Assembly (NCBI GenBank): GCA_035446285.1
Contig: DAOMSJ010000002.1
Coordinates: 182,592 to 246,591 of the forward strand
DNA: 64,000 nt
Reading direction: 5' to 3'
Source of the DNA: Anaerolineales bacterium
Lineage (GTDB): Bacteria > Chloroflexota > Anaerolineae > Anaerolineales > UBA11579
Part shown: one piece after another, positions 11,341-28,103 of the stretch
Position numbering within the stretch: position 1 is the stretch's first letter
How the letters are laid out: the number at the start of each line of letters is the position of its first letter
Notes under the pieces: model-generated
What the model saw: the letters and a program-made list of their open reading frames with translations, nothing else
What the model was told of the DNA's origin: nothing
Database searches by the model: none
Translations under genes and position numbers: made by a program

Positions 11341-12516
11341 CTAGCGCTGATTGCTCAGGAAGCGCTCGTGTTCAGCCAGCGAGTCACGCGCCATTTCCAA
11401 CACGGCTTGCAAATTGCGCTCAGACTGGTCACGCAAGTGCTGCAGAGTATCCTGTACCTCGCGCAATGAATCTTCTATTGTAGTAATTTGCTCCACTAGT
11501 TTCTCGCGCTGGCGAGTCTCCTCGCGTAGCTGCTCTTCATTGGTGAGGGTGAAGCTGGCCCAGCGCTTCTGCGCATCGGCCTGGAAGGTGGACCATTCCT
11601 GGCGGAAGCGCTGCTCGCCCAGGCGTTGAATCTCGCTTAGCTCATTCACGCGGCGGTTGATCTTCTCGACCAGCTCATCGAAGGAGCGTTGCGCACGCTT
11701 GACGGTCAGATCAGTCGTTTCAAGTTCCTTCAGATGACGCACCAGGGTGTTGGATTGCTGCTCCACCACCTCAAAGCGCTTGCCCCATTCCTTCATGGTG
11801 CGCTTGCGGTCTTCTTCCTGCATGGCGGCCTGCTCAAGGAAGCCTTGCTGCGCCTGCTTGCGCTCTTCCTCTGTCTCGAACATCTCATCGACGCGCTTGT
11901 CCACCTTGCGCTGCCCATCCAGAATGAGCTCGGTGCGCTTGGTTGCGGTATCCAGGCGGCTGATGAGCGCGGCCACCTCGGCGTGCATTTCCGTCAGACG
12001 TTTGATATCCTGTTGGCTGTTCTTCTCGATATTGGTAACGATCTTGGCGCGCTTTTCTTCGCCGCGCTCCACCTCAACCACCACTTCTTGCAGGCGGTCT
12101 ACGTTGCCGCCCAGTGTGAGCAGGGTCTGGCTGTGCTCATTGACGCTCTTGCGCACAGCTTGCAGATCGGCCATCTCCTTACGGAAATCATCCAGCACTT
12201 TGGAGATACCCTTTTGTTCCTGGGCCAGGGATTTGTCCTGGGACTTGCGCTGGCTGGAAAGCTCGTGCAGCTGGTCCTTGATTTCTTTATTGATGGCAGT
12301 CTGTGCATTGAGCCCCGTTTCCAGCTCGGCCACCTGATCGGCCAGGGATTTCACTTTGGCTTTGCTTTCGGCGCGCGAGGTGGTGGTCTTTTGGGAACGC
12401 ACCAGGCTGCGCTCAAGCGTATCCAGGCGCTTCTTAAGCTCTTCGTTCTCGGTTATGGCTTTGCGGCGCTCTGCATCCAGCCACGCCACCTTCTTTTCAA
12501 GCTGCTCTTTTTCCAT
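11341..12516 (-). CDS. Coiled-coil protein (391 aa, almost entirely heptad-like E/K/Q/L-rich)
   Basis: The composition and periodicity are typical of long coiled coils. There is no TM segment or enzymatic motif. It lies 24 nt downstream of the membrane operon. Confidence 0.75.
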   Translation of the reverse strand: MEKEQLEKKVAWLDAERRKAITENEELKKRLDTLERSLVRSQKTTTSRAESKAKVKSLADQVAELETGLNAQTAINKEIKDQLHELSSQRKSQDKSLAQEQKGISKVLDDFRKEMADLQAVRKSVNEHSQTLLTLGGNVDRLQEVVVEVERGEEKRAKIVTNIEKNSQQDIKRLTEMHAEVAALISRLDTATKRTELILDGQRKVDKRVDEMFETEEERKQAQQGFLEQAAMQEEDRKRTMKEWGKRFEVVEQQSNTLVRHLKELETTDLTVKRAQRSFDELVEKINRRVNELSEIQRLGEQRFRQEWSTFQADAQKRWASFTLTNEEQLREETRQREKLVEQITTIEDSLREVQDTLQHLRDQSERNLQAVLEMARDSLAEHERFLSNQR

Positions 12517-12540: not shown

Positions 12541-13977
12541 CTATTGGAATACTTGAGGGAACATGAGTACCAGGCGCTGTACTGGCGCCAGGAAGGAGGG
12601 CAGCAGCCCGTAGCCCAGCAGGGTGACCAGCCAGATGAGAGAAAACACCCACACATACGGGTTGGCCATATCCGGGCGCTGACTGAACGGCAGGCGTTCC
12701 ACGGGGCCAACCGGAGCGCGTGGCTCTGGCGCGGCCGTGAGCCAGGCGTGCAACAGGCGCAAGCCGCCGGCCAATAGCCCCAGGCTGCCCAAGAATGAAA
12801 GGATAAGTAGGCCCACAGATTGCTGCCCCACCCCATGCCAAATGGCGAGATGGGCGGCGAAGGGGCCGAGCAGCGGCAGGCCAGCCAGGGCTACCAAGGC
12901 GGCCACGGCAGTGAGCGCCAGCAAGGGGTGGCGGCGCAGGGCTGGGCCCAGCTCTTCCAACTGTAAGCTGGGCGTGTGGCGGTGCAACACGGCCAGGCTG
13001 GCGGCCAGCGCCCACAGCACCCAGGCCTGCGGCAGCAAAAGGGCAAAGAAGGTTTGCAAACCCACAGCGCCACCGAGGCCAATCGCCTGCAGCAGGCCAC
13101 CGGTAGCCAGCATACCGGCGAAGGCCATCATGCGGCCAAGATGGCGCTGCTGTGAGGCCCACACGCCGCCAAGGAATACACCCAGGCTGCCCATGGCGAG
13201 CAACAGCTGGAAAATGGCGGGATTATCGCGCAACCAAACGTAACGCTCCACAAAGCTGAGCAGGAAGATGAGCGCTACGGCGCGTAGGAAGAACGTGAGG
13301 AAGCCGAGCACATACGGCGCGGTTTCCTGCGCCAACATGGGCACCCAGGAATGGAAAGGAAACAACGCCAATAGGAAGCTAAAACCGAGCGCCATCAGCA
13401 AGCCGGCGCGCAACACCAGCTCAAAGTTGCCGGGGTTGCCCTCCACGCCAGTGAGCAGCCAACCGGTGAACAGGATACAGGGCACCGAGAACAGCAAAAA
13501 GATCAGGGCGCGTTGCATGCCGCGGCCGGGCTGTGTGCCAGGCGGTACGAGAAGTGGCACCCACACCAGGAAAGCGGCCGCCAGGAACAGGGCCGCATAC
13601 AAGAAGGGTTGCACGGCCAGCGCGGCCATGAACAGGCCCACGGCGATGAGCGACAAACCAGGAAACAGCTGGCCGGGCCGCGTGAGGAAAGCGCCGAGCA
13701 GCCAAAGGGTTTGGGCGAGATAAATGAAAGTGAGCAGCAAGCGCTGCGTCTCGGCCAGGGTGAAGTTGCGGCCCAGGAAGGTGAGCGTAGGCGCAATCTC
13801 AATAGAAATCGAGCCGAGTTGCAAGACCACATCAATGGGGAACTGCCAGGCGATCCAGGTGAGGATGAAGCTCAGGCCGATGGCGAGATACAGCGGCGTG
13901 TCATCCTTGCGGCGGTAGAGCAGCAAGGCAGCGCCCACGGCGATGGGCAGCAGGATCCACAGGAAGGCCGAGCTCAT
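12541..13977 (-). CDS. Divergent proton-conducting-membrane-transporter (NuoN/MrpD/HyfF-like) subunit
   Basis: 478 aa and polytopic. It carries PF00361-type signatures LFPFHSWVP and LAGLPLLGPFAAH. Its start overlaps the upstream stop (ATGA). Confidence 0.75.
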   Translation of the reverse strand: MSSAFLWILLPIAVGAALLLYRRKDDTPLYLAIGLSFILTWIAWQFPIDVVLQLGSISIEIAPTLTFLGRNFTLAETQRLLLTFIYLAQTLWLLGAFLTRPGQLFPGLSLIAVGLFMAALAVQPFLYAALFLAAAFLVWVPLLVPPGTQPGRGMQRALIFLLFSVPCILFTGWLLTGVEGNPGNFELVLRAGLLMALGFSFLLALFPFHSWVPMLAQETAPYVLGFLTFFLRAVALIFLLSFVERYVWLRDNPAIFQLLLAMGSLGVFLGGVWASQQRHLGRMMAFAGMLATGGLLQAIGLGGAVGLQTFFALLLPQAWVLWALAASLAVLHRHTPSLQLEELGPALRRHPLLALTAVAALVALAGLPLLGPFAAHLAIWHGVGQQSVGLLILSFLGSLGLLAGGLRLLHAWLTAAPEPRAPVGPVERLPFSQRPDMANPYVWVFSLIWLVTLLGYGLLPSFLAPVQRLVLMFPQVFQ

Positions 13978-14564
13978 TCTTCAGTCTCCAGCGTGGGCGC
14001 AGTGAGCAGATAGGCACACACCAGCGCAATGCCCAGGTTCACCGCGGTCAGCAAGCCAGTGACCAGCGTAGAGCCCTCCACCACGGCGTAAAGAATTTCA
14101 AATCCGCTAAAGAGCGTGAGCAGCCCCAGCGCGGTGCGGAAGAAACCGTTGCGCAAGGCCAACTGCATCAGGCCCATGCCCAGCAGCAGCAAACCACCCC
14201 AGGCTTGGTAGATACCAAAAGCACGCGACCATTCCGTGAGCCGCGGTGCAGCGCCCAGCACCATGAGGATGACCAGGCCCGCCGCCAACAAGCGGAAGAC
14301 ACGGCCGGATGGCACGTTGCCTTCTGGCGTAGTGAGCTGCGGCAGGTTGAGGCGTGTCAGGCCGAGCACCGAAGCGGCAATCCAGCCGGTGACCAACTTA
14401 ACCACGGCCAACTCAGCAGGCCAGGCCTGCAGCAAGAGCACGAAGGCCCACACGTACTGCAAGCCAAGCGCGGCCACCGCCCAACGCCAGTCTTGATTGA
14501 CAAGCACATATAGTGATGTGATGAGTAAGAGAAGCACAGCGAGCGTGCCGACAAAATCTGCCAT
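13974..14564 (-). CDS. Small polytopic membrane protein (about 6 TM, HyfE-like architecture)
   Basis: 196 aa from MADFVGTLAVLLLLITSLYV. The longer track ORF (to 14852) overlaps the upstream gene and is Arg/Ala-rich noise. The chosen ATG overlaps the upstream stop (TGATG). Confidence 0.7.
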   Translation of the reverse strand: MADFVGTLAVLLLLITSLYVLVNQDWRWAVAALGLQYVWAFVLLLQAWPAELAVVKLVTGWIAASVLGLTRLNLPQLTTPEGNVPSGRVFRLLAAGLVILMVLGAAPRLTEWSRAFGIYQAWGGLLLLGMGLMQLALRNGFFRTALGLLTLFSGFEILYAVVEGSTLVTGLLTAVNLGIALVCAYLLTAPTLETEE

Positions 14565-16090
14565 CAGCCCGCCAAGCCTCCTTGCGAGAAAATTGAAATC
14601 AGCAGCGCAATAAATAACAGTGCCCACAGCAAGCCCGCCTCGCCTTCCAGCAGGCTGCTGAGCAGGCGCAGCACGGCGGCCAGCGCGGCGGAGAGGCCAG
14701 CGGCGATCTGACGCGGTGCGGGCAGGCGCCACTGCGGCAAGCGCATACGCTGGCGGAAATGCGGGGGCAGCAATTGCCGCCCGCTGCGGCGCAGGTAGAT
14801 GCGCCCAGCCCAGGTCGCCGCCAGCAAAGCCAGCACGACGATCGCCGGCCACCAGGCGGCGCTGTTGCCGCCAAAGGGCAGCGGCAATATCAGGCCAGCG
14901 ATCACAAACATCGCCAGGGGCAGCACGGCGCCGATACTTTCGACGGCCAGGGTCCAGGGTTCATCCGGTGCGGGCGGTTCGCTGGGGGCGCCGGCGCGCT
15001 GCACAATGCCGAGCAGCAGCAAGGCGTGCAAGGGCAGCGCCGCAAACAGCAGCGGGCTGAGTGGTGCGCTATACAAAGCCGAGGTGCCCTGAGCGGCGGT
15101 GAACCACAATCCGCTGAACAGCAGCGCACCCACTAGCATGAACGGGCGGCGCAGCTGAGGGTAATGGCCGATGAGGCGCGCCAGCGTTTCCGCATACAGC
15201 AGCAGCAAACCAAAACCGAGAACGGCGTTGGTGGCCCCGGCGATGGCGGCGGCCAAGGCCAGTGCGACGGTACTGCGCTGCATGTGCTGCAGCGGTGCGT
15301 TGGGAGCCAAGGCGAGGACAGCCCAGCGTAAGGCCGCGGCGAGTAGGAGGACAAGACTGAGGTGCAACGCGATGCCGGAGAAAGGCTGGATAAAACGCAG
15401 CAAGACAAAGCCAGCCGCCAGGGGTGCATAGCGCAGCATTGTGGTGAAGGCTGGCATGGGTTGGCGCGTGCCCACACGCGGGCCAGCCGCCAAGGCCAGG
15501 CGCAGGCCGCCAGCCACGCTGAGCAACAGCGAAGCCAGGCTGGCATACGAAGCGGGTGTAGCCCAGGCGGCCAGCACCAGCAGCACGCTGCCCAAAGACA
15601 GCGCAAATTGCTCCAGCAGCACCGCGCGCCCCTCGTCTGGGGCAAAGGCGCTGTGCTGCGCAAAGATCATGATGTCCAGCAGCAGCAGCGTGAGCGCCAC
15701 GGCCAGCAGGTCAGCGGCGGCCACTGCCAGCAGGCCTGCGGCGGCCAGCGCCAGCGAGGGCATCCAGATCGGCCAGCTTACGTCAGAGGCGCGGCGCACG
15801 CTGCGCAGCAAGCTGGCCAACAGAAGGATGAGCAGAGTGAATGACAGCGACCAGGAGAATCCGTCGAGGCCGAAGCTCAGCGGGAATTGCAAACCATCGC
15901 TGAGCACCCAACCCGGAAAGTGAGCCGCCTGCGGCAAACTGAAACGCAAGCCGAGCGTGAGCAATGCCGCCAACAGGGCGCCGGCGGTGGCTACGAACCA
16001 GTACGATTTGAACGCCGGGCGCCAGCGCTGCAAGGCGACCAGGGCCAGCAGGGTGATGACCAGCAGCAGGCTGGGCAGCAAGACCCACAT
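14564..16090 (-). CDS. Large polytopic membrane protein, highly degenerate antiporter-like (NuoL/M/HyfD-like) subunit
   Basis: 508 aa with about 14 hydrophobic segments. The N-terminal stretch LSFGLDGFSWSLSFTLLILL resembles the first conserved block of NuoL/M/N-type subunits. Its start overlaps the upstream stop (TGATG). Confidence 0.65.
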   Translation of the reverse strand: MWVLLPSLLLVITLLALVALQRWRPAFKSYWFVATAGALLAALLTLGLRFSLPQAAHFPGWVLSDGLQFPLSFGLDGFSWSLSFTLLILLLASLLRSVRRASDVSWPIWMPSLALAAAGLLAVAAADLLAVALTLLLLDIMIFAQHSAFAPDEGRAVLLEQFALSLGSVLLVLAAWATPASYASLASLLLSVAGGLRLALAAGPRVGTRQPMPAFTTMLRYAPLAAGFVLLRFIQPFSGIALHLSLVLLLAAALRWAVLALAPNAPLQHMQRSTVALALAAAIAGATNAVLGFGLLLLYAETLARLIGHYPQLRRPFMLVGALLFSGLWFTAAQGTSALYSAPLSPLLFAALPLHALLLLGIVQRAGAPSEPPAPDEPWTLAVESIGAVLPLAMFVIAGLILPLPFGGNSAAWWPAIVVLALLAATWAGRIYLRRSGRQLLPPHFRQRMRLPQWRLPAPRQIAAGLSAALAAVLRLLSSLLEGEAGLLWALLFIALLISIFSQGGLAG

Positions 16091-16674
16091 CAGGCATCGC
16101 CTCCGCCGGAGCCGAAGAACATCTCGCCGCTCTCCCGGATGGCGAAGAGGGCCAACAGGTCAAGATCCACGGGCAGGGCTGGCGTGGTGCGTGTGTCGTA
16201 GCCCTGCTCGGTGACGGCCTTCTCGCGAATCGAGCGGTACAGCTCGCCGCGCTGCTCTGAGGGCACCTGCAAATCCGCAATGGTTTCGGCGCCCAGCAGC
16301 AAATCACCCGTGGTGTAAAAGAAGGTGATGCGCTTCCATTCGCCAGCGGGCAAAGGGCGCGGCAGGCTGTAGAGGCTGCCGATCTGTATTTTGAAGTATT
16401 CGTTCATCCCGCGCGGATGGTCGGGCTCGTCTTTGAACAAATCCTTACGCAGCACCATTTCGTAGCCGTTGAGCGGCGCGGTGTATTCGATGCACCATTT
16501 ACGGCTGCCAAAGCTGGCGGGCTGGTAGAAGGCCAGATGGTCGGCGGCGATGATCTGCGGGCCGCTGACGAGCGGGATGCGATACCAGCCGAGGGTGCGA
16601 GCGATGTCGAGATCGCGCGGGTTGGGCAGGATGCAGACGAGGATGAGATCGTTGGGTAATGGGCGTTGAGGCAT
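16090..16674 (-). CDS. Hypothetical cytosolic protein (194 aa), first gene of the membrane operon
   Basis: No TM segment and no family recognised. It has clean codon usage and an acidic C-terminal tail. Confidence 0.7.
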   Translation of the reverse strand: MPQRPLPNDLILVCILPNPRDLDIARTLGWYRIPLVSGPQIIAADHLAFYQPASFGSRKWCIEYTAPLNGYEMVLRKDLFKDEPDHPRGMNEYFKIQIGSLYSLPRPLPAGEWKRITFFYTTGDLLLGAETIADLQVPSEQRGELYRSIREKAVTEQGYDTRTTPALPVDLDLLALFAIRESGEMFFGSGGGDA

Positions 16675-16731: not shown

Positions 16732-16856
16732 GTCATTCCGGGTGTTAGCCGAAGGCTAGGAATCCATAGGGCAATACAGGAGTAGCTGGTTTGTTGATGG
16801 CCTAAAGGATTCTTCCGCAGAAATGCACTGCGGCTGCACTGCTCGTTCGGAATGAC
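16732..16856. repeat. Palindromic mini-repeat type A
   Basis: Reads gtcattccgggtgttagccgaaggctaggaatcc ... ggattcttccgcag...ctcgttcggaatgac. It is related to the copy at 4500-4616. Confidence 0.85.
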
Positions 16857-16918
16857 AAGAGTTTATGGTGTGGCCGCAGGGATCCCTCGCTGCGCTCGGG
16901 ATACAAGTACTAAGCACA

Positions 16919-16958
16919 GATTGCTTCGTGCGCAGGCAAGCCTGCGCCTCGCAATGAC
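16919..16958. repeat. 40-bp mini-repeat type C (GATTGCTTCGTGCGCAGGCAAGCCTGCGCCTCGCAATGAC)
   Basis: Identical to the copy at 17207-17246. The copy at 37610-37650 has a 1-nt insertion and the copy at 41066-41105 has 1 mismatch. Confidence 0.95.
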
Positions 16959-16968
16959 AAAACTCCGT

Positions 16969-17034
16969 GTCATTCCGAGCGGTTAGGCAGTACTGCACCA
17001 GACCGCCGAACCCGCATCAGCGAGGAATCCTTGC
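16969..17034. repeat. Mini-repeat type B (GTCATYCYGAGCGG...ACCAGACCGCCGAA...CAGCGARGRATCCTTRC)
   Basis: Aligns with 60450-60515 and, in reverse orientation, with 11047-11112. Confidence 0.85.
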
Positions 17035-17095
17035 TGGCACTTCTTCCAGGTAGCTGCTGTTTTCAGATAAGCGGAACGTTGCACCAGAACTTAAC

Positions 17096-17155
17096 GGATT
17101 CTTCCGCAGGAATGCACTGCGACTCCTCGCGGCTACGCCGCTCGTTCGGAATGAC
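17096..17155. repeat. Mini-repeat type A, right half only
   Basis: The sequence is ggattcttccgcaggaatgcactgcgactcctcgcggctacgccgctcgttcggaatgac. Confidence 0.8.
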
Positions 17156-17206
17156 AGGAATTAAGCATGTGGCCGCAGGAATCCCTCGTTGCACTCGGGA
17201 TACACA

Positions 17207-17246
17207 GATTGCTTCGTGCGCAGGCAAGCCTGCGCCTCGCAATGAC
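17207..17246. repeat. 40-bp mini-repeat type C
   Basis: Identical to 16919-16958. The roughly 40 bp upstream (ggccgcaggaatccctcg...) is also shared with 16871-16918. Confidence 0.95.
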
Positions 17247-17291
17247 GGGTTGGCTTAGGCTTACAGCTAATCGCTAACAGCTATAAGCTAC

Positions 17292-22128: not shown

Positions 22129-24483
22129 ATGCTGACACCTTTTCTTCTCTTACTTTTGTTGAGTGGCCCGGCGCTGTGGCTGCTGCGCCCGCAACGCTGG
22201 GCACACGGCGGCTGGCTGGCGGCGTTCAGCCCGGCGCTGGTCACCGGCTGGCTGCTGGCGCAACTGGGGCGCGTAGGGCAAGGCCAGATCCTGACCGAGC
22301 AACGTGTGTGGTCAGACGCGTTTGGCCTGGCGCTGGATCTGCGCCTGGATGGGCTGGGCTTGTTCTTTGGCCTCATCGTAGCGGGCATCGGCACGGCGAT
22401 TGCCGTGTATGCCGGCTACTACTTTGAGAAGAACTCACGCCTGGGCTATTTTTACGCACTGCTATTTACGTTCATGACCAGCATGCTGGGGCTGGTGTGG
22501 GCAGATAACCTGCTGGCCTTGTTCGTTTTTTGGGAAGGCACCAGCATCACCAGCTATTTGCTGATCTCCTTCAAGCTGACTGACAAGAATGCACTGGAAG
22601 GCGCGCGCCGCGCGTTCGTGGTGACCGGCATGGGCGCGCTGGCGATGCTGGGCGGCTTCGTGCTGCTGGGCCAGATGGCCGGCACCTATTCGATCAGCGG
22701 GCTGCTGGCGCTGCCCGCCGCCACGCTGACGCAGCACGCGCTGTTCACGCCGATGCTGATACTGGTGCTGTTGGGCGCATTTACAAAATCAGCCCAGTTC
22801 CCATTTCACTTCTGGCTGCCCGGCGCCATGGCTGCCCCTACGCCGGCCAGCGCCTATTTGCATTCAGCCACCATGGTGAAGGCGGGCGTGTATCTGCTGG
22901 CGCGGCTGCATCCGGCCTTCGCCGAGAGCCCGCTGTGGTTCTGGGCGCTGTTGGTGGTGGGCGGGCTGACCATGCTGGTGGGCGCGCTGGTCGCACTGCG
23001 CCACTATGACCTCAAAGCCATTCTGGCCTACGCCACGGTCAGCCAACTGGGCGTGCTGGTGCTGCTGCTGGCCTTCAATACGAAGGTGGCCGTCACCGCG
23101 GCAGTGGTGGGCATTTTGGCGCATGCGCTATACAAAGGCCCGTTGTTCATGGTGGCGGGCATCGTAGACCACGCCACGGGCACGCGCGATATTCGCAAGC
23201 TGGCCGGGCTGGCGCGCAGCCTGCCGCTGGTGGGCGCGGCAGCAATCCTGGCGGGCATCTCGATGGCCGGTATCATCCCTACCTTTGGCTTTGTGGCCAA
23301 AGAGTTGCTGCTGGAGAATTTCTTTACCCTTATCGAAGCCGGGCAGGGACAGTTGGGCTGGGCCGGCCTGGTGGCGGTGGTGATCACCGGGGCGCTGTTT
23401 GTGGCCTATAGCCTCATCCTGCTGTGGGAGGCGTTCCTGCGGCGCAGCTCGCCGCTGAAGCAGGCCACGGTGCACCACGCGCCCTCGGCGGCGTTTGTGC
23501 TGCCGGTGCTGGCGCTCACCCTAGTGGGCGCGCTGATCCCGTTCTTCTTCTCAGCCATCGAAGGCGCGCTGTTCGGCTCGGCGGGCAGCGCCATCCTGGG
23601 CGCGGCGCTGGAGCCGTACCTGGCGCTGTGGCACGGCTGGACGCCGATCTTCCTGACCAGCTTGCTGGCGATTGCCCTGGGTGTTGTGATCTTCACGCAG
23701 CGCGAGGGTATCCGCAAGCTGTTCGCAAAAGCGCCCGAGTTCAAAGGGCAAACGGTGTTTGACGGCACCGTGGACGCGCTGTACCGCCTGGCACGCTGGA
23801 CTACACGCACGGTGCAAGGCTCCAGCTTCCCGACACAGATCAGCATTCCCCTGCTGGCTTCGGCGGGCTTTGTGGCCTACGCCTTGAGCCGCGATTTTGT
23901 GGCTGACCTGCGCGTGGATTGGGCCACCATCCCCACGTTCTATGAAGTGGCCTTGCCGCTGCTGGTGGTAGTGGCCGCGCTAGCGATCGCGCGGGCGCAA
24001 AGCCGCCTGAGCGCCATCATCAGCCTCGGTCTGGTGGGCAGCGTGGTGATGCTCATCTATGTCTTCTTCTCGGCGCCCGACCTGGCGTTGACGCAGTTCC
24101 TGGTCGAAATACTTACCTTGGTGTTACTGCTATTCGTCTTTTATCGCATCCCCCATCATGCGTATCCCAAACAACCCAAACCGCGTTCGTTCAAGTACCT
24201 GCTGGTGAGCCTGGCGGTGGGCGCGTGGGGCTTCGGCATGGCGCTGTTGGCCGCCGGCAAACCGCTGGCACAGACGATCAGCAGCTACTTCTCGCTGAAC
24301 GCTACCGCGGCGCACGGCGGCAACATCGTGAATGTGATCCTGGTGGATTTCCGCGGCTTCGATACGCTGGGCGAGATCAGCGTGATGGTGGTGGCGGCGC
24401 TGGGCGGCTATGCCCTGCTGCGCTCCTCACGCATGCGGCCCATTCCGCCTGACAAAAAATACAAGGAGCGCGGCGATGCCTGA
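22129..24483 (+). CDS. mrpA: Na+/H+ antiporter subunit MrpA/MnhA (with C-terminal MnhB-like domain)
   Basis: 784 aa. Contains FVFWEGTSITSYLLI, KSAQFPFHFWLPGAM and a C-terminal VILVDFRGFDTLGEI. Confidence 0.9.
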   Translation: MLTPFLLLLLLSGPALWLLRPQRWAHGGWLAAFSPALVTGWLLAQLGRVGQGQILTEQRVWSDAFGLALDLRLDGLGLFFGLIVAGIGTAIAVYAGYYFEKNSRLGYFYALLFTFMTSMLGLVWADNLLALFVFWEGTSITSYLLISFKLTDKNALEGARRAFVVTGMGALAMLGGFVLLGQMAGTYSISGLLALPAATLTQHALFTPMLILVLLGAFTKSAQFPFHFWLPGAMAAPTPASAYLHSATMVKAGVYLLARLHPAFAESPLWFWALLVVGGLTMLVGALVALRHYDLKAILAYATVSQLGVLVLLLAFNTKVAVTAAVVGILAHALYKGPLFMVAGIVDHATGTRDIRKLAGLARSLPLVGAAAILAGISMAGIIPTFGFVAKELLLENFFTLIEAGQGQLGWAGLVAVVITGALFVAYSLILLWEAFLRRSSPLKQATVHHAPSAAFVLPVLALTLVGALIPFFFSAIEGALFGSAGSAILGAALEPYLALWHGWTPIFLTSLLAIALGVVIFTQREGIRKLFAKAPEFKGQTVFDGTVDALYRLARWTTRTVQGSSFPTQISIPLLASAGFVAYALSRDFVADLRVDWATIPTFYEVALPLLVVVAALAIARAQSRLSAIISLGLVGSVVMLIYVFFSAPDLALTQFLVEILTLVLLLFVFYRIPHHAYPKQPKPRSFKYLLVSLAVGAWGFGMALLAAGKPLAQTISSYFSLNATAAHGGNIVNVILVDFRGFDTLGEISVMVVAALGGYALLRSSRMRPIPPDKKYKERGDA

Positions 24484-24907
24484 GTTATATCTTGCCCTGC
24501 TTGACCGTATCCTGACCCCCGTGCTGCTGATGCTGGCCGTCATCTTTCTGCTGGCAGGGCACAACGCGCCCGGCGGCGGCTTCATTGCCGGCCTGGTGGT
24601 GGCCACGGCCTTCCTGATGCAAATCATGGCGCGCGGCGATGCGTTTGTGCGCCGCCTCATCGGCCCGTACTTGCAGCCGCTGATGGGCACCGGCTTGCTG
24701 ATCGCCGTGCTATCGGCGCTGGTGGGCATGGGCAACTATGCGCTGTTCTTTGAAGGCGTGTGGTGGAAGTGGAACCTGGGCGACTTTGTGCTGGAGTTTG
24801 GCACACCGACCCTGTTCGACATCGGCGTGTTCCTGGTGGTGAGCGCCTTCGTGACCTCGTATCTATTGGAGCTCAGCCGCCCGGTCAAAGAAGGAGGCCG
24901 TAAATGA
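24476..24907 (+). CDS. mrpB: Na+/H+ antiporter subunit MrpB/MnhB
   Basis: Begins MPELYLALLDR...LLAGHNAPGGGFIAGL. AAGGAG lies upstream and the gene overlaps the mrpA stop. Confidence 0.85.
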   Translation: MPELYLALLDRILTPVLLMLAVIFLLAGHNAPGGGFIAGLVVATAFLMQIMARGDAFVRRLIGPYLQPLMGTGLLIAVLSALVGMGNYALFFEGVWWKWNLGDFVLEFGTPTLFDIGVFLVVSAFVTSYLLELSRPVKEGGRK

Positions 24908-25368
24908 TCGCCTTAGTATTCGCCGGGTTGGTGGCGGTGCTGATGGCCAGCGCGACGTACCTGTTGCTGCAACGCAACCCGGTGCGCATGGTGATCGGTT
25001 TGGGCCTGTTCACGCACGCGGTCAATTTGCTCATTTTTGGCACCGGTGTGAGTGAGCGCGGCCTGCCGCCCATCATCGTGGATAAAGCGGCCTTCACTGG
25101 CGACATCAGCCAGTTTGTGGACCCGTTGCCGCAGGCGCTGATCCTGACGGCGATCGTAATCAGTTTCGGCATTGTGGCTTTCATGATCGCGCTGCTGCAC
25201 CGGCGCAATTCGCTGGAAGCGATCGACGAAAGCTGCACCGACCGCAGCGATGACCCCTTTGCGATGGAACCCGCCCACACGCTGGAGCATGTGGACGAAG
25301 ATTACGAGTGGCTGGAAGATGTCGTGCTGCTCAACGAGCTTAACCCACCCAAACGGAGCCGCCGATGA
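24904..25368 (+). CDS. mrpC: Na+/H+ antiporter subunit MrpC/MnhC (NuoK-like) with an acidic C-terminal extension
   Basis: Three TM helices including the QALILTAIVISF motif. There is an ATGA overlap on both sides. Confidence 0.85.
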   Translation: MIALVFAGLVAVLMASATYLLLQRNPVRMVIGLGLFTHAVNLLIFGTGVSERGLPPIIVDKAAFTGDISQFVDPLPQALILTAIVISFGIVAFMIALLHRRNSLEAIDESCTDRSDDPFAMEPAHTLEHVDEDYEWLEDVVLLNELNPPKRSRR

Positions 25369-26927
25369 ACCTGTTCGCTAATTGGCTGGCCGCCCCGGTG
25401 GTCCTCCCGCTGCTGTTTGCCGCCATCTCGCTGCTGGCAGCCACGCGGGTGAACCTGCGCCAGATACGCTTCCAGCGCACCATGGCGCTGGTGGCCAGCG
25501 TGCTCAACTTTGCGGTGGCGCTGTTGCTGCTGCGCACCACGGCCATCGAGGGACAGCGCATCGTACTGTACGCCGGTGCGTGGCAGGCGCCCTTCGGCAT
25601 CACGCTGGTGGCGGATGCACTGAGCGCCATCATGCTCACGCTGACCGGGCTGCTGATGCTGGCAATCGTGGTGTACTCCATCGGCACGCTGGACGAGCGT
25701 CAGGGCATGAATTTCTTCCCGCTGCTGCTCTTCCTGCTGATGGGCGTCAACGGCGCCTTCCTGGCCGGCGACCTGTTCAATCTCTACGTATTCTTTGAAG
25801 TCTTGCTGATGGCGAGCTTCGTATTGCTCAGCCTGGGCGGGCGCCCCAATCAAGTCAACGGCGGTTTGCGCTACGTGGTGCTCAACCTCATCGCCTCGAC
25901 CGTGTTCCTGACCACGGCGGGTGTGATGTACGGCACGCTGGGCACGCTGAACCTGGCGCACCTGGCCGAACGCATGGCGCTGGCGCCGGAGTCTTTGCGC
26001 ATTGTGCTGGCCGGCATGCTGTTGGTGGCGTATGGCAGCAAAGCGGGCTTGTTCCCGCTGTTCTTCTGGCTGCCGGCCAGTTATCACACACCCCACCCGG
26101 CGGTGACGGCCATCTTCGGCGGCTTGCTCACCAAAGTGGGCATCTACGCGCTGTTCCGCATCTTCCCACTGCTATTCCCTGACCTGCTGGCCCATTGGCA
26201 ACCGTTCATTCTGGCGGTTGCGGCGCTGACCATGCTGACGGGTGTGTTCGGGGCAATGGCAGTCAAGACCATCCGGCGCGTGTTGAGTTTTCACGTCATC
26301 AGCCAAGTCGGTTACATGGCGATGGGCCTCGGCCTGGCCGCCAGCGGCAACCAGCTGGCGATCGGCTTTGGCATGGCGGCAGGCATCTTCTACATCGTGC
26401 ATCACATGATCGTGAAGACGGCGCTGCTGCTGGCGGGTGGCGCAGCCGAACTGACCATGGGCACCGGCAAGCTGGAAGCCGGGCACCTGGGTGGCCTGGT
26501 CAAGCGCTGGCCATACCTGGCGGTAATCTTCTTCGTAGCCGCCTTTTCACTGGCTGGCATTCCGCCATCCAGCGGCTTTGTAAGCAAGCTGGGCCTGCTG
26601 CAAGCGGCCATGGATTCGGGGCAGTGGATGATCGCCGGGGTGAGCCTGGTGGTGAGCCTGCTGACGCTGATGAGCATGGTGCGCTTGTGGCAGCGCGGCT
26701 TCGCTGGGCCAGTGGAAGCCACCACGATGCCGTGGCGCAAGCCGCAGCGCTGGCTGACAGCGGCGCCGATCACGGTGCTGGTGCTGGTCAGTTTAGCTGT
26801 GGGCATCTTCAGTGCGCCGGTGTTTGGCTGGGCGCAAGTGGCCGCCGAGCAGGTGCTGGACCGTGCCGGCTACATCCAGGCGGTGGCGCCGACGGATGTC
26901 ATTGCCCCGCTGGGCGCGGAGCACTAG
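25365..26927 (+). CDS. mrpD: Na+/H+ antiporter subunit MrpD/MnhD
   Basis: 520 aa. Contains LYVFFEVLLMASF, GSKAGLFPLFFWLPASY and AGIPPSSGFVSK. Confidence 0.9.
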   Translation: MNLFANWLAAPVVLPLLFAAISLLAATRVNLRQIRFQRTMALVASVLNFAVALLLLRTTAIEGQRIVLYAGAWQAPFGITLVADALSAIMLTLTGLLMLAIVVYSIGTLDERQGMNFFPLLLFLLMGVNGAFLAGDLFNLYVFFEVLLMASFVLLSLGGRPNQVNGGLRYVVLNLIASTVFLTTAGVMYGTLGTLNLAHLAERMALAPESLRIVLAGMLLVAYGSKAGLFPLFFWLPASYHTPHPAVTAIFGGLLTKVGIYALFRIFPLLFPDLLAHWQPFILAVAALTMLTGVFGAMAVKTIRRVLSFHVISQVGYMAMGLGLAASGNQLAIGFGMAAGIFYIVHHMIVKTALLLAGGAAELTMGTGKLEAGHLGGLVKRWPYLAVIFFVAAFSLAGIPPSSGFVSKLGLLQAAMDSGQWMIAGVSLVVSLLTLMSMVRLWQRGFAGPVEATTMPWRKPQRWLTAAPITVLVLVSLAVGIFSAPVFGWAQVAAEQVLDRAGYIQAVAPTDVIAPLGAEH

Positions 26928-26938
26928 CAGGAGGACGT

Positions 26939-27460
26939 ATGCCAACGAAATATGAAAACGAACAAATCGTTACCCTGCTGATCGTCAATGTGGGGCTGGC
27001 CATCTTCTGGTATGTGTTCTTCCCGCTGTATGGCACGGCTGACCTGTTCATCGGTTTCGTTATAGGCACGCTGGCGCTGTCGGTTTTTCACCGTGGCTAT
27101 GGCAAACGCATCTGGTGGCTGTTGTCCTTCCTGTTGTTCATGGTCTGGGAGATTGTGTTAAGCAACGCCAAGCTAACGCGTTGGATCCTGAGCCCGCGGC
27201 TGGAGTTTCACCCGGGCATTGTGGCCGTGCCGCTGACGCTGGATACTGATTTTGAGATCACCGTGCTGGTGACGATGATCACGCTCACCCCAGGCACCAC
27301 GAGCATTGACCTGCGCAAAGACCATAAGGGCCGCTACGTGGTTTGCATCCATAGCTTCTTTGTGAAGGACGCCGATTCGTTCCGGCACGAGATCAAGGAT
27401 ATGTTTGAGCGTCGCCTGGCGCTGGTAACCCGCGGAGGCTGGGAACATGAACTGGTTTGA
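26939..27460 (+). CDS. mrpE: Na+/H+ antiporter subunit MrpE/MnhE
   Basis: Begins at MPTKYENEQ, preceded by AGGAGG. Size and position fit MrpE. The longer track ORF from 26195 overlaps mrpD out of frame and is rejected. Confidence 0.8.
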   Translation: MPTKYENEQIVTLLIVNVGLAIFWYVFFPLYGTADLFIGFVIGTLALSVFHRGYGKRIWWLLSFLLFMVWEIVLSNAKLTRWILSPRLEFHPGIVAVPLTLDTDFEITVLVTMITLTPGTTSIDLRKDHKGRYVVCIHSFFVKDADSFRHEIKDMFERRLALVTRGGWEHELV

Positions 27461-27722
27461 TGCTGGCATTGATATCCTGCTGGTGATGCTGACGCTGTCC
27501 TTTCTGTTGGGTTCGCTGCGCCTGATCAAAGGGCCGGACGTGCCCAACCGCGCCCTGGCGTTTGACCTCATCACCCTGCAGGCAGTGGGCATTGTGGCCC
27601 TGATCGCCATTCGCCATGATGCGCCGATGCTGCTGGATATTGCCATGGTGGCGGCGGTGCTGGGCTTTGTGGGCACGGTGCTGGTGGCGCGCTATCTTGA
27701 ACAAGCGCGTGACGGCGAATAA
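27447..27722 (+). CDS. mrpF: Na+/H+ antiporter subunit MrpF/MnhF
   Basis: 91 aa with 3 TM helices and the motif LRLIKGPDVPNRALAFD. Confidence 0.85.
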   Translation: MNWFDAGIDILLVMLTLSFLLGSLRLIKGPDVPNRALAFDLITLQAVGIVALIAIRHDAPMLLDIAMVAAVLGFVGTVLVARYLEQARDGE

Positions 27723-27731
27723 GGAGCACAC

Positions 27732-28103
27732 ATGGAAACACGTGAGATCATCGTATTGATCGTTGCCAGCATCGGAGCGCTGATCATGCTGATCAGCAGC
27801 ATTGGCGTGCTGACCCTGCCGGATGTGTTCATGCGCATGCACGCCTTTGGCAAGGCAGGCACGATGGGCATCAGCGGGTTGATCCTGGCGGCGGGTTTGT
27901 TCTACCCCAATTACCTGGCGCGCATGGTGGCCCTGGTGATCCTGTTCTTTGTCACCGGGCCGATCGCCGCCACAGCGCTCTCGCGGGCGGCCTACAAAGT
28001 GGCTACGCCAGCGGCCAAGGAAGCCATGCTGGAGTTCAACGAAATGGAAAACGGGAGGCAGCGCACCAAGCGCAAACCCGCCAAGAAAAAAGCCGCTGGA
28101 TAG
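27732..28103 (+). CDS. mrpG: Na+/H+ antiporter subunit MrpG/MnhG
   Basis: 123 aa. Contains GVLTLPDVFMRMHAFGKAGT, with AAGGAG upstream. Confidence 0.85.
   Translation: METREIIVLIVASIGALIMLISSIGVLTLPDVFMRMHAFGKAGTMGISGLILAAGLFYPNYLARMVALVILFFVTGPIAATALSRAAYKVATPAAKEAMLEFNEMENGRQRTKRKPAKKKAAG

Follow-up and report, generated by a model that had tools for sequence, protein, structure and literature searches.

A conserved block of antiporter-like and coiled-coil genes in Anaerolineales with a divergent PF00361 subunit that lacks the lysine relay

In complex I, Mrp and membrane-bound hydrogenases, PF00361 subunits do the work of ion translocation, and a locus which encodes subunits of this kind with no gene of those machines beside it raises the question of what such proteins are doing there. 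We examined this question for a gene cluster of an Anaerolineales bacterium (Chloroflexota; assembly GCA_035446285.1, contig DAOMSJ010000002.1, positions 182,592 to 246,591 of the forward strand), in a stretch of 64,000 nucleotides that is referred to here as the window and from whose first letter all coordinates are counted. The cluster consists of five genes, all on the minus strand, which we named sol194, tm508, tm196, ant478 and cc391. Four of them, tm508-tm196-ant478-cc391, form a stand-alone, vertically inherited unit.

A scan with one genome per species turned up an ant478 relative in 340 stretches; the best 80 of these, all from metagenome-assembled genomes (MAGs) of Anaerolineales/Chloroflexota, were combined with loci L001-L003 into a sample of 83 loci, and gene neighborhoods were viewed in the 64-kb window and in 17-kb loci. 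In this sample tm196 was found in 83 of 83 loci and tm508 in all loci without contig truncation, with cc391 downstream and co-directional in 78 (four of the five exceptions are truncated contigs). The spacing is similarly regular, tm508 ending 0-10 nt before tm196, the tm196/ant478 junction standing at -4 (or -1) in essentially all related loci, and cc391 following ant478 after 24-400 nt. Because these four genes persist while the flanks vary among clades, they constitute the constant block. The earlier note on this DNA had proposed a different four-gene arrangement, in which a 194-aa cytosolic protein was the partner; its 508-196-478 core was recovered, whereas the 194-aa gene was not, and the conserved fourth gene, the downstream cc391, had been missed. 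Linkage of sol194 was seen in 22 of 83 loci, directly adjoining tm508 only in the closest relatives (L001, L004-L007, L040) and elsewhere 2-3.5 kb upstream, mostly at about 2 kb, with an amidohydrolase gene between, so that sol194 is a recent neighbor and not a component of the block.

The positions, sizes and 1-4 nt start/stop overlaps reported for the four reading frames were as claimed when read from the sequence. In the window, sol194 (16090-16674, minus strand; 194 aa, soluble) and tm508 (14564-16090, minus; 508 aa) overlap by 1 nt at 16090 (TGATG, GCCTGATGTGG), and tm508 meets tm196 (13974-14564, minus; 196 aa, ATG at 14564) at 14564 with the same TGATG and 1-nt overlap (GGCTGATGGCA). 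The tm196 stop and the start of ant478 (12541-13977, minus; 478 aa) share the 4 nt ATGA at 13974-13977 on the minus strand (GAAGAATGAGCT), and cc391 (11341-12516, minus; 391 aa) lies downstream of ant478. Since the ATGA overlap recurs in nearly all 83 loci, the overlaps represent real operon architecture, in agreement with the tight coupling proposed. A 292-aa GTG open reading frame at 13974-14852 is an over-extended tm196, for which homologues place the start at ATG 14564. Promoter and terminator scans gave background level only.

The lack of an adjoining redox or Mrp partner, noted earlier for the window, extends to its relatives: no redox module, NuoH/B/C/D, hydrogenase, DabA or Mrp small-subunit gene, and no HycD/NuoH-type subunit with hydrogenase large and small subunits, was found in the window flanks or in the 83 loci, and no NuoA, H, J, K or peripheral-arm gene was linked to the block. 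The separate canonical mrpABCDEFG operon at 22129-28103 was likewise confirmed, with Pfam matches to MnhB, Oxidored_q2, MNHE, MrpF and MrpG. Its MrpA has 784 aa and its MrpD 520 aa, the latter with the Glu of transmembrane helix 5 (TM5) and the TM7/TM8/TM12 Lys motifs intact.

Family profiles were searched against Pfam, NCBIfam and all PDB sequences, and 17-39 family members were also scanned one by one. Against PF00361 (Proton_antipo_M), ant478 scored 53.5 bits (gathering cut-off 21.5; E 2.7e-14), which places it in the superfamily, with a match that spans only residues 186-395 (model positions 79-287), the TM7-TM12 core. Its best NCBIfam score was to TIGR01770 NuoN, at 57.6 bits vs a cut-off of 332.6, and it fell below every Mrp, Hyf, Nuo and Ehb equivalog cut-off in NCBIfam by an order of magnitude. 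The best PDB sequence matches were MbsH', mycobacterial NuoN and NdhB. The 478-aa protein, previously noted for its PF00361 signatures, is thus a member of PF00361, and a divergent one.

Residues of ant478 were mapped in E. coli NuoM numbering by alignment to the solved MbsH', NuoN and NdhB chains, the window's MrpA and MrpD, and NuoM; column counts cover 82 loci, of which 18 belong to the window's clade and 64 lie outside it. The motifs quoted earlier were all located, LLALFPFHSWVP (TM7; 13339-13374, minus strand), FFLRAVAL and AGLPLLGPFAAH in the 478-aa protein, KSAQFPFHFWLP, MVKAGVY and GFVAK in the in-window MrpA, and SKAGLFPLFFWLP, LTKVGIY and GFVSK in the in-window MrpD; the TM12 motif of ant478, GLPLLGPFAAH, is at 12850-12882 (minus). 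The three lysine substitutions that had been read from these motifs were supported by HMM and HH alignments to the NuoN/MbsH' chains, MrpA/MrpD and NuoM. The TM7 Lys (NuoM K234) is Leu in the window (L202) and in 78 of 82 loci; the TM8 Lys (NuoM K265) is Arg in the window (R232) and Pro in 76 of 82; and the TM12 Lys/Glu (NuoM E407) is His in the window (H376), with Arg in 48 and His in 28 of the 82 loci. Additionally, the TM5 Glu (NuoM E144), present in 61 of 64 loci outside the window's clade, is Ala in the window (A133; 13579-13581, minus strand) and is replaced by Ala, Val, Cys or Gly in each of the 18 loci of that clade. At ant478 position 291, which corresponds to NuoM His322, 58 of the 64 outside loci have Glu; this Glu is lost inside the clade, and the window has Ala. 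The charged relay of TM5 Glu, TM7 Lys, TM8 Lys/His and TM12 Lys/Glu is thus replaced at every position in the ant478 of the window, and the broken-helix residues F206, P207, W211, P213, G366, P368 and F373 are invariant. Judged from these residues, a classical Na+/H+ antiporter or proton pump would be unlikely, because protons cannot be passed along a relay whose positions hold Arg, Leu and Pro.

The sequence of tm508 gave no match to Pfam, NCBIfam, or PDB sequences and profiles, and in hhalign comparisons with the ant478 family, MrpA/D, NuoL/M/N and HyfB/D/F the probability was ~1% or less. A sequence-detectable paralogy of tm508 with ant478, or of tm196 with either, was ruled out, hhalign being not significant. 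Structure was more informative. An AlphaFold2 model built from an alignment of 21 sequences (pLDDT 84.3, pTM 0.83) opens with two helices and a beta-hairpin after TM2 (residues 54-75) and continues with a multi-helix core and a C-terminal extension, for a total of ~16-17 helices (a 14-TM core plus the extension) in place of the ~14 TM segments first counted. Foldseek returned 153 PDB matches at E <=0.001, headed by MrpD, NuoL, ND5, NdhF and MbsH' (E 1e-9 to 1e-7, prob 1.0, TM 0.5-0.67). On the basis of this model, tm508 is predicted to have an antiporter-like NuoL/MrpD fold, and its description as the more degenerate antiporter-like subunit is appropriate for a protein with no HMM or HH signal and yet this fold. 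The same fold rules out a GT-C glycosyltransferase, a candidate suggested by the GT2 gene upstream, which is linked in 23 of 83 loci only.

The hhalign alignment of tm508 with the window's MrpD is statistically insignificant, collinear, and in agreement with the fold. In this insignificant alignment R197 (15500-15502, minus strand; family motif AAGLRLGVLPLH) falls on the TM7 Lys of the MrpD motif GSKAGLFPLF and D139 (15674-15676, minus) falls one turn past the TM5 Glu position of MrpD; both residues are invariant in the family, as is E482. Residues 459-503 (14582-14716) form a low-confidence helix, then an invariant LEGE(G/A)GxLW hinge (E482, G483, G486, W489), then the final TM helix. This C-terminal extension beyond the 14-TM core is a likeness to MrpA and NuoL, whose lateral-helix-plus-anchor it recalls in a much shorter form.

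The AlphaFold2 model of tm196 (pLDDT 89.7, pTM 0.86) shows seven helices joined by very short connecting loops, which corrects the earlier count of ~6 TM segments. K56 (14397-14399), E156 (14097-14099) and E163 (14076-14078), all minus strand, are invariant, and judging from the helix order and the positive-inside rule they would lie near the same, probably outer, membrane face. No relative of known function emerged: tm196 had no significant Pfam, NCBIfam or PDB match, Foldseek of the model against PDB gave nothing better than E 0.33, single-sequence hhalign comparisons with MrpB/C/E/F/G, the MrpA C-terminus, NuoJ, NuoK and HyfE gave none that was significant, and MnhB, Oxidored_q2, MNHE, MrpF and MrpG matches were lacking from tm196, sol194 and cc391. 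With 1563 clusters at 90% identity and 847 at 50%, this is a large family, and all its named members are called 'hypothetical protein'; in an exhaustive search of representatives the best 150 matches were all strong family members, with no bridge to a known family among them. One 393-aa protein (P0409), which carries a tm196 domain at residues 1-185 and ~200 further residues without a Pfam match, may be a tm196 fusion variant.

These results bear on the analogy with the E. coli HyfD-HyfE-HyfF subunits (hydrogenase-4, formate hydrogenlyase-2), which had suggested itself from the gene order and which leads to one alternative explanation, that the block is a detached module of this type, or an accessory antiporter-like module, docking onto a hydrogenase, complex I or Mrp encoded elsewhere. 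The likeness lies in the large-small (7-TM class)-large order and in the similar sizes (508-196-478 as compared with 479-216-526 for HyfD-E-F), and among E. coli paralogues ant478 scored best against HyfF in hhalign (E 1.5e-10, as against 2.7e-9 for NuoN). HyfE of E. coli is also of the seven-helix class, with extra N-terminal helices before a 3-TM NuoK-like domain, its last 90 residues matching PF00420 (8e-18), and the tm196/HyfE alignment is weak and collinear with a shared Y-x3-E-(N)G-S-x-LV-x2-LL string. That alignment is however not significant (P 0.14 against a HyfE profile of 9 members taken from plasmid-borne hyf operons), PF00420 was detected in 0 of 39 tm196 members, and there was no NCBIfam match, so the HyfE-likeness of tm196 may serve as a lead, not as a result. 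Furthermore, the HyfF equivalog scores of ant478 are 26-29 bits vs cut-offs of 533-951, tm508 has no sequence similarity to HyfD, a hydrogenase or Nuo gene was linked in 0 of 83 loci, the relay lysines needed for coupling are missing, and the block owns a conserved coiled-coil partner. We regard a docking module as improbable.

That partner, cc391, is a soluble, cytoplasmic protein with generic coiled-coil matches along its length, and searches against Pfam, NCBIfam and PDB sequences returned non-specific coiled-coil matches only. Its N-terminal residues are conserved, and the Arg/Trp-rich motif RRxNExxExQRLxExRFRQEWxTFxADxQKRW at residues 288-328 (11533-11655, minus strand) is invariant, with invariant columns at R288, R289, E292, E295, Q297, R298, R303, R305, Q306, F311, Q316, K317, R318 and W319. 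This motif is unaltered in the clade whose two large membrane subunits have lost glutamates.

The residue losses in that clade, which is the window's, invite the question of whether the locus is simply decaying. Besides E133 and E291 of ant478, the clade has lost E142 of tm508 (Glu in 54 of 55 other loci), H204 and R212/R213, and an intermediate, L018, has lost E133 and E142 and retains E291 and R317. These losses on a single lineage represent few evolutionary events. Because two proteins lost residues in step, the pattern argues that ant478 and tm508 may share one function. Other charged residues are invariant in both clades (D139, R197 and E482 of tm508; R27, K56, E156 and E163 of tm196), and of these D139, R197, K56, E156 and E163 are predicted to lie within membrane helices. 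The ratio of nonsynonymous to synonymous substitution rates (dN/dS), calculated with L004, L005 and L006 as reference loci, was 0.03-0.15 for ant478, tm196, cc391 and sol194 and 0.08-0.28 for tm508; all block genes and sol194 are under purifying selection. A functionless, decaying relic of a duplicated antiporter operon could account for the loss of canonical residues, for the fast divergence of tm508 with its dN/dS of up to 0.28, and for the further losses in the window's clade. It is scarcely credible in view of the many invariant columns, and it is excluded in practice because all 83 species-level genomes have intact reading frames that do not vary in length and because dN/dS is low.

Taken together, these results lead us to favor, tentatively and at slightly less than an even chance, the interpretation that the block encodes a stand-alone membrane complex of the Mrp/complex I membrane-arm lineage, which acts as a non-pumping platform tied to the coiled-coil protein and which is characteristic of Anaerolineales/Chloroflexota. 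The scaffold of a well-known pump appears to have been put to another use, and the 'repurposed scaffold' of the earlier note is reasonable as a proposal. A non-pumping role is favored because the relay is replaced and because the window's clade shed most of the remaining membrane carboxylates under selection. In such a complex tm508, tm196 and ant478 would stand next to one another in the manner of Mrp or of the membrane arm of complex I, with tm196 supplying a small-subunit interface, the short C-terminal helix and anchor of tm508 acting as a clamp, and cc391 working together with the membrane complex. The antiporter fold, which is conformationally flexible and has kept the Pro/Gly motifs of its broken helices, could serve as a platform, either responsive to ions or potential or purely structural, by which the coiled-coil protein is placed at the membrane or regulated there. 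In the window's clade any residual ion path is probably gone, because E133, E291, E142 and H204 were lost stepwise, and a scaffold or anchor role would be left.

Several observations weigh against this interpretation. That the four proteins act as one complex is something we infer, and the tie of cc391 to the membrane genes is one of synteny only. Still present in the majority clade are the TM5 Glu (61 of 64 loci), the Glu at the NuoM His322 position and Arg or His in TM12, residues which could support ion transport, and the invariant D139/R197 and K56/E156/E163, together with the constrained broken helices, would fit an active transporter equally well. A still-active ion transporter, either a cation/H+ exchanger or a uniporter of unusual chemistry with the coiled-coil protein as its regulator, is accordingly the alternative we weigh most closely, as a possible though rather unlikely explanation that is most plausible for the majority clade. 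The Lys relay would here be replaced by the Asp/Arg of tm508, the Lys/Glu/Glu of tm196 and the Glu/Glu/Arg of ant478, and the retention of the TM5 Glu, E291 and R/H376 in the majority clade, the invariant Pro/Gly motifs of the broken helices, the strong purifying selection, and the size and age of the family (the 847 clusters at 50% identity) are all in keeping with it. Conversely, ant478 has Leu and Pro in place of the TM7 and TM8 Lys family-wide, Arg carries protons poorly, all genes remain under selection in the window's clade after the loss of E133, E291, E142 and H204, and the operon of a canonical Mrp antiporter lies 6 kb away.

The platform complex that we favor may be compared with several known systems. 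With MrpA/MrpD of Mrp (CPA3) the block shares two PF00361-fold subunits encoded beside a small membrane subunit, as well as the motifs FPxHxWxP (TM7) and GxPxxxxF (TM12) of the broken helices; it differs from Mrp in being without the MrpB, C, E, F and G domains, in the replacement of the TM7/TM8/TM12 lysines, in the addition of a coiled-coil cytoplasmic partner, and in co-existing with a genuine mrpABCDEFG operon in the window. The likeness to NuoN, NuoM and NuoL of complex I (and to NdhB and MbsH') is one of sequence for ant478 and of structure for tm508, whereas ant478 lies far under all equivalog cut-offs and its relay residues are swapped. The DAB system (DabB-DabA) and the cyanobacterial CUP systems are precedents in which a PF00361 subunit works apart from respiratory complexes and antiporters, joined by a non-homologous partner in the cytoplasm; the block, in contrast, has two antiporter-like subunits and a coiled-coil partner, and no DabA (DUF2309), CupA-type or carbonic-anhydrase-like domain was found in sol194, cc391 or the flanking genes. 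Full-text literature searches for PF00361 and for antiporter-like subunits in Anaerolineae turned up no account of such a block. The fold itself is a known one, which is not true of the assembly, its residue pattern or its partners.

The genes around the block differ among clades. The downstream flank holds ParB/ParA/PfkB genes in the window's clade. In the non-window clade (L002, L019-L083; e.g. L060:10731-12626) cc391 is followed in the same direction by a gene for a SelB-type elongation factor, an arrangement found in 51 of 83 loci that may reflect either plain synteny or co-transcription. Upstream neighbors across loci include amidohydrolase, DUF3048 and DAG kinase genes. An origin in a defense system or mobile element was ruled out, the block being syntenic and vertically conserved beside housekeeping genes. 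Two contigs of one MAG (CAIQQN01; L022 and L030) each carry tm196-ant478-cc391, as a second paralogous copy or through bin contamination. The neighboring sol194, with its equivalents in L001-L077, makes up an orphan family that is itself conserved: ~40 columns are invariant, GWYRIP, AFYQP and FxYTTG among them. It has no Pfam, NCBIfam or PDB match, and it travels with a GT2/PLP-enzyme/amidohydrolase cluster, not with the membrane block. The intergenic sequence that separates sol194 from the GT2 gene (window 16760-17290) contains two direct copies ~290 nt apart, with segments 84-100% identical, which are made of palindromic GTCATTGCGAGG...CAATGAC and GTCATTCCGAACGAGC units and are REP/MITE-like in appearance.

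Anaerolineae are typically filamentous, and in filamentous cyanobacteria the reuse of a transporter fold as a septal or cytoskeletal anchor in SepJ offers a loose parallel. It is possible, if doubtful, that the block represents a new class of membrane machine, in which a relay-less two-subunit antiporter scaffold would be hard-wired to a coiled-coil (cytoskeleton-like) protein and would link a filamentous or structural element of Anaerolineae to the membrane potential, to ion binding or simply to a position at the membrane. DAB and CUP are among the few known cases of PF00361 subunits outside the established machines, and they altered the understanding of the fold. Here purifying selection preserves a fold whose lysine relay, deemed essential in current coupling models, is missing, in a block which, as marked by an ant478 relative, occurs in 340 species genomes with new 7-helix and coiled-coil partners. 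The stepwise loss of glutamates in one clade provides a test of which residues are needed for fold stability and which for transport. Finally, tm508, tm196 and cc391 add three unannotated families to the core genome of an abundant and poorly studied order.

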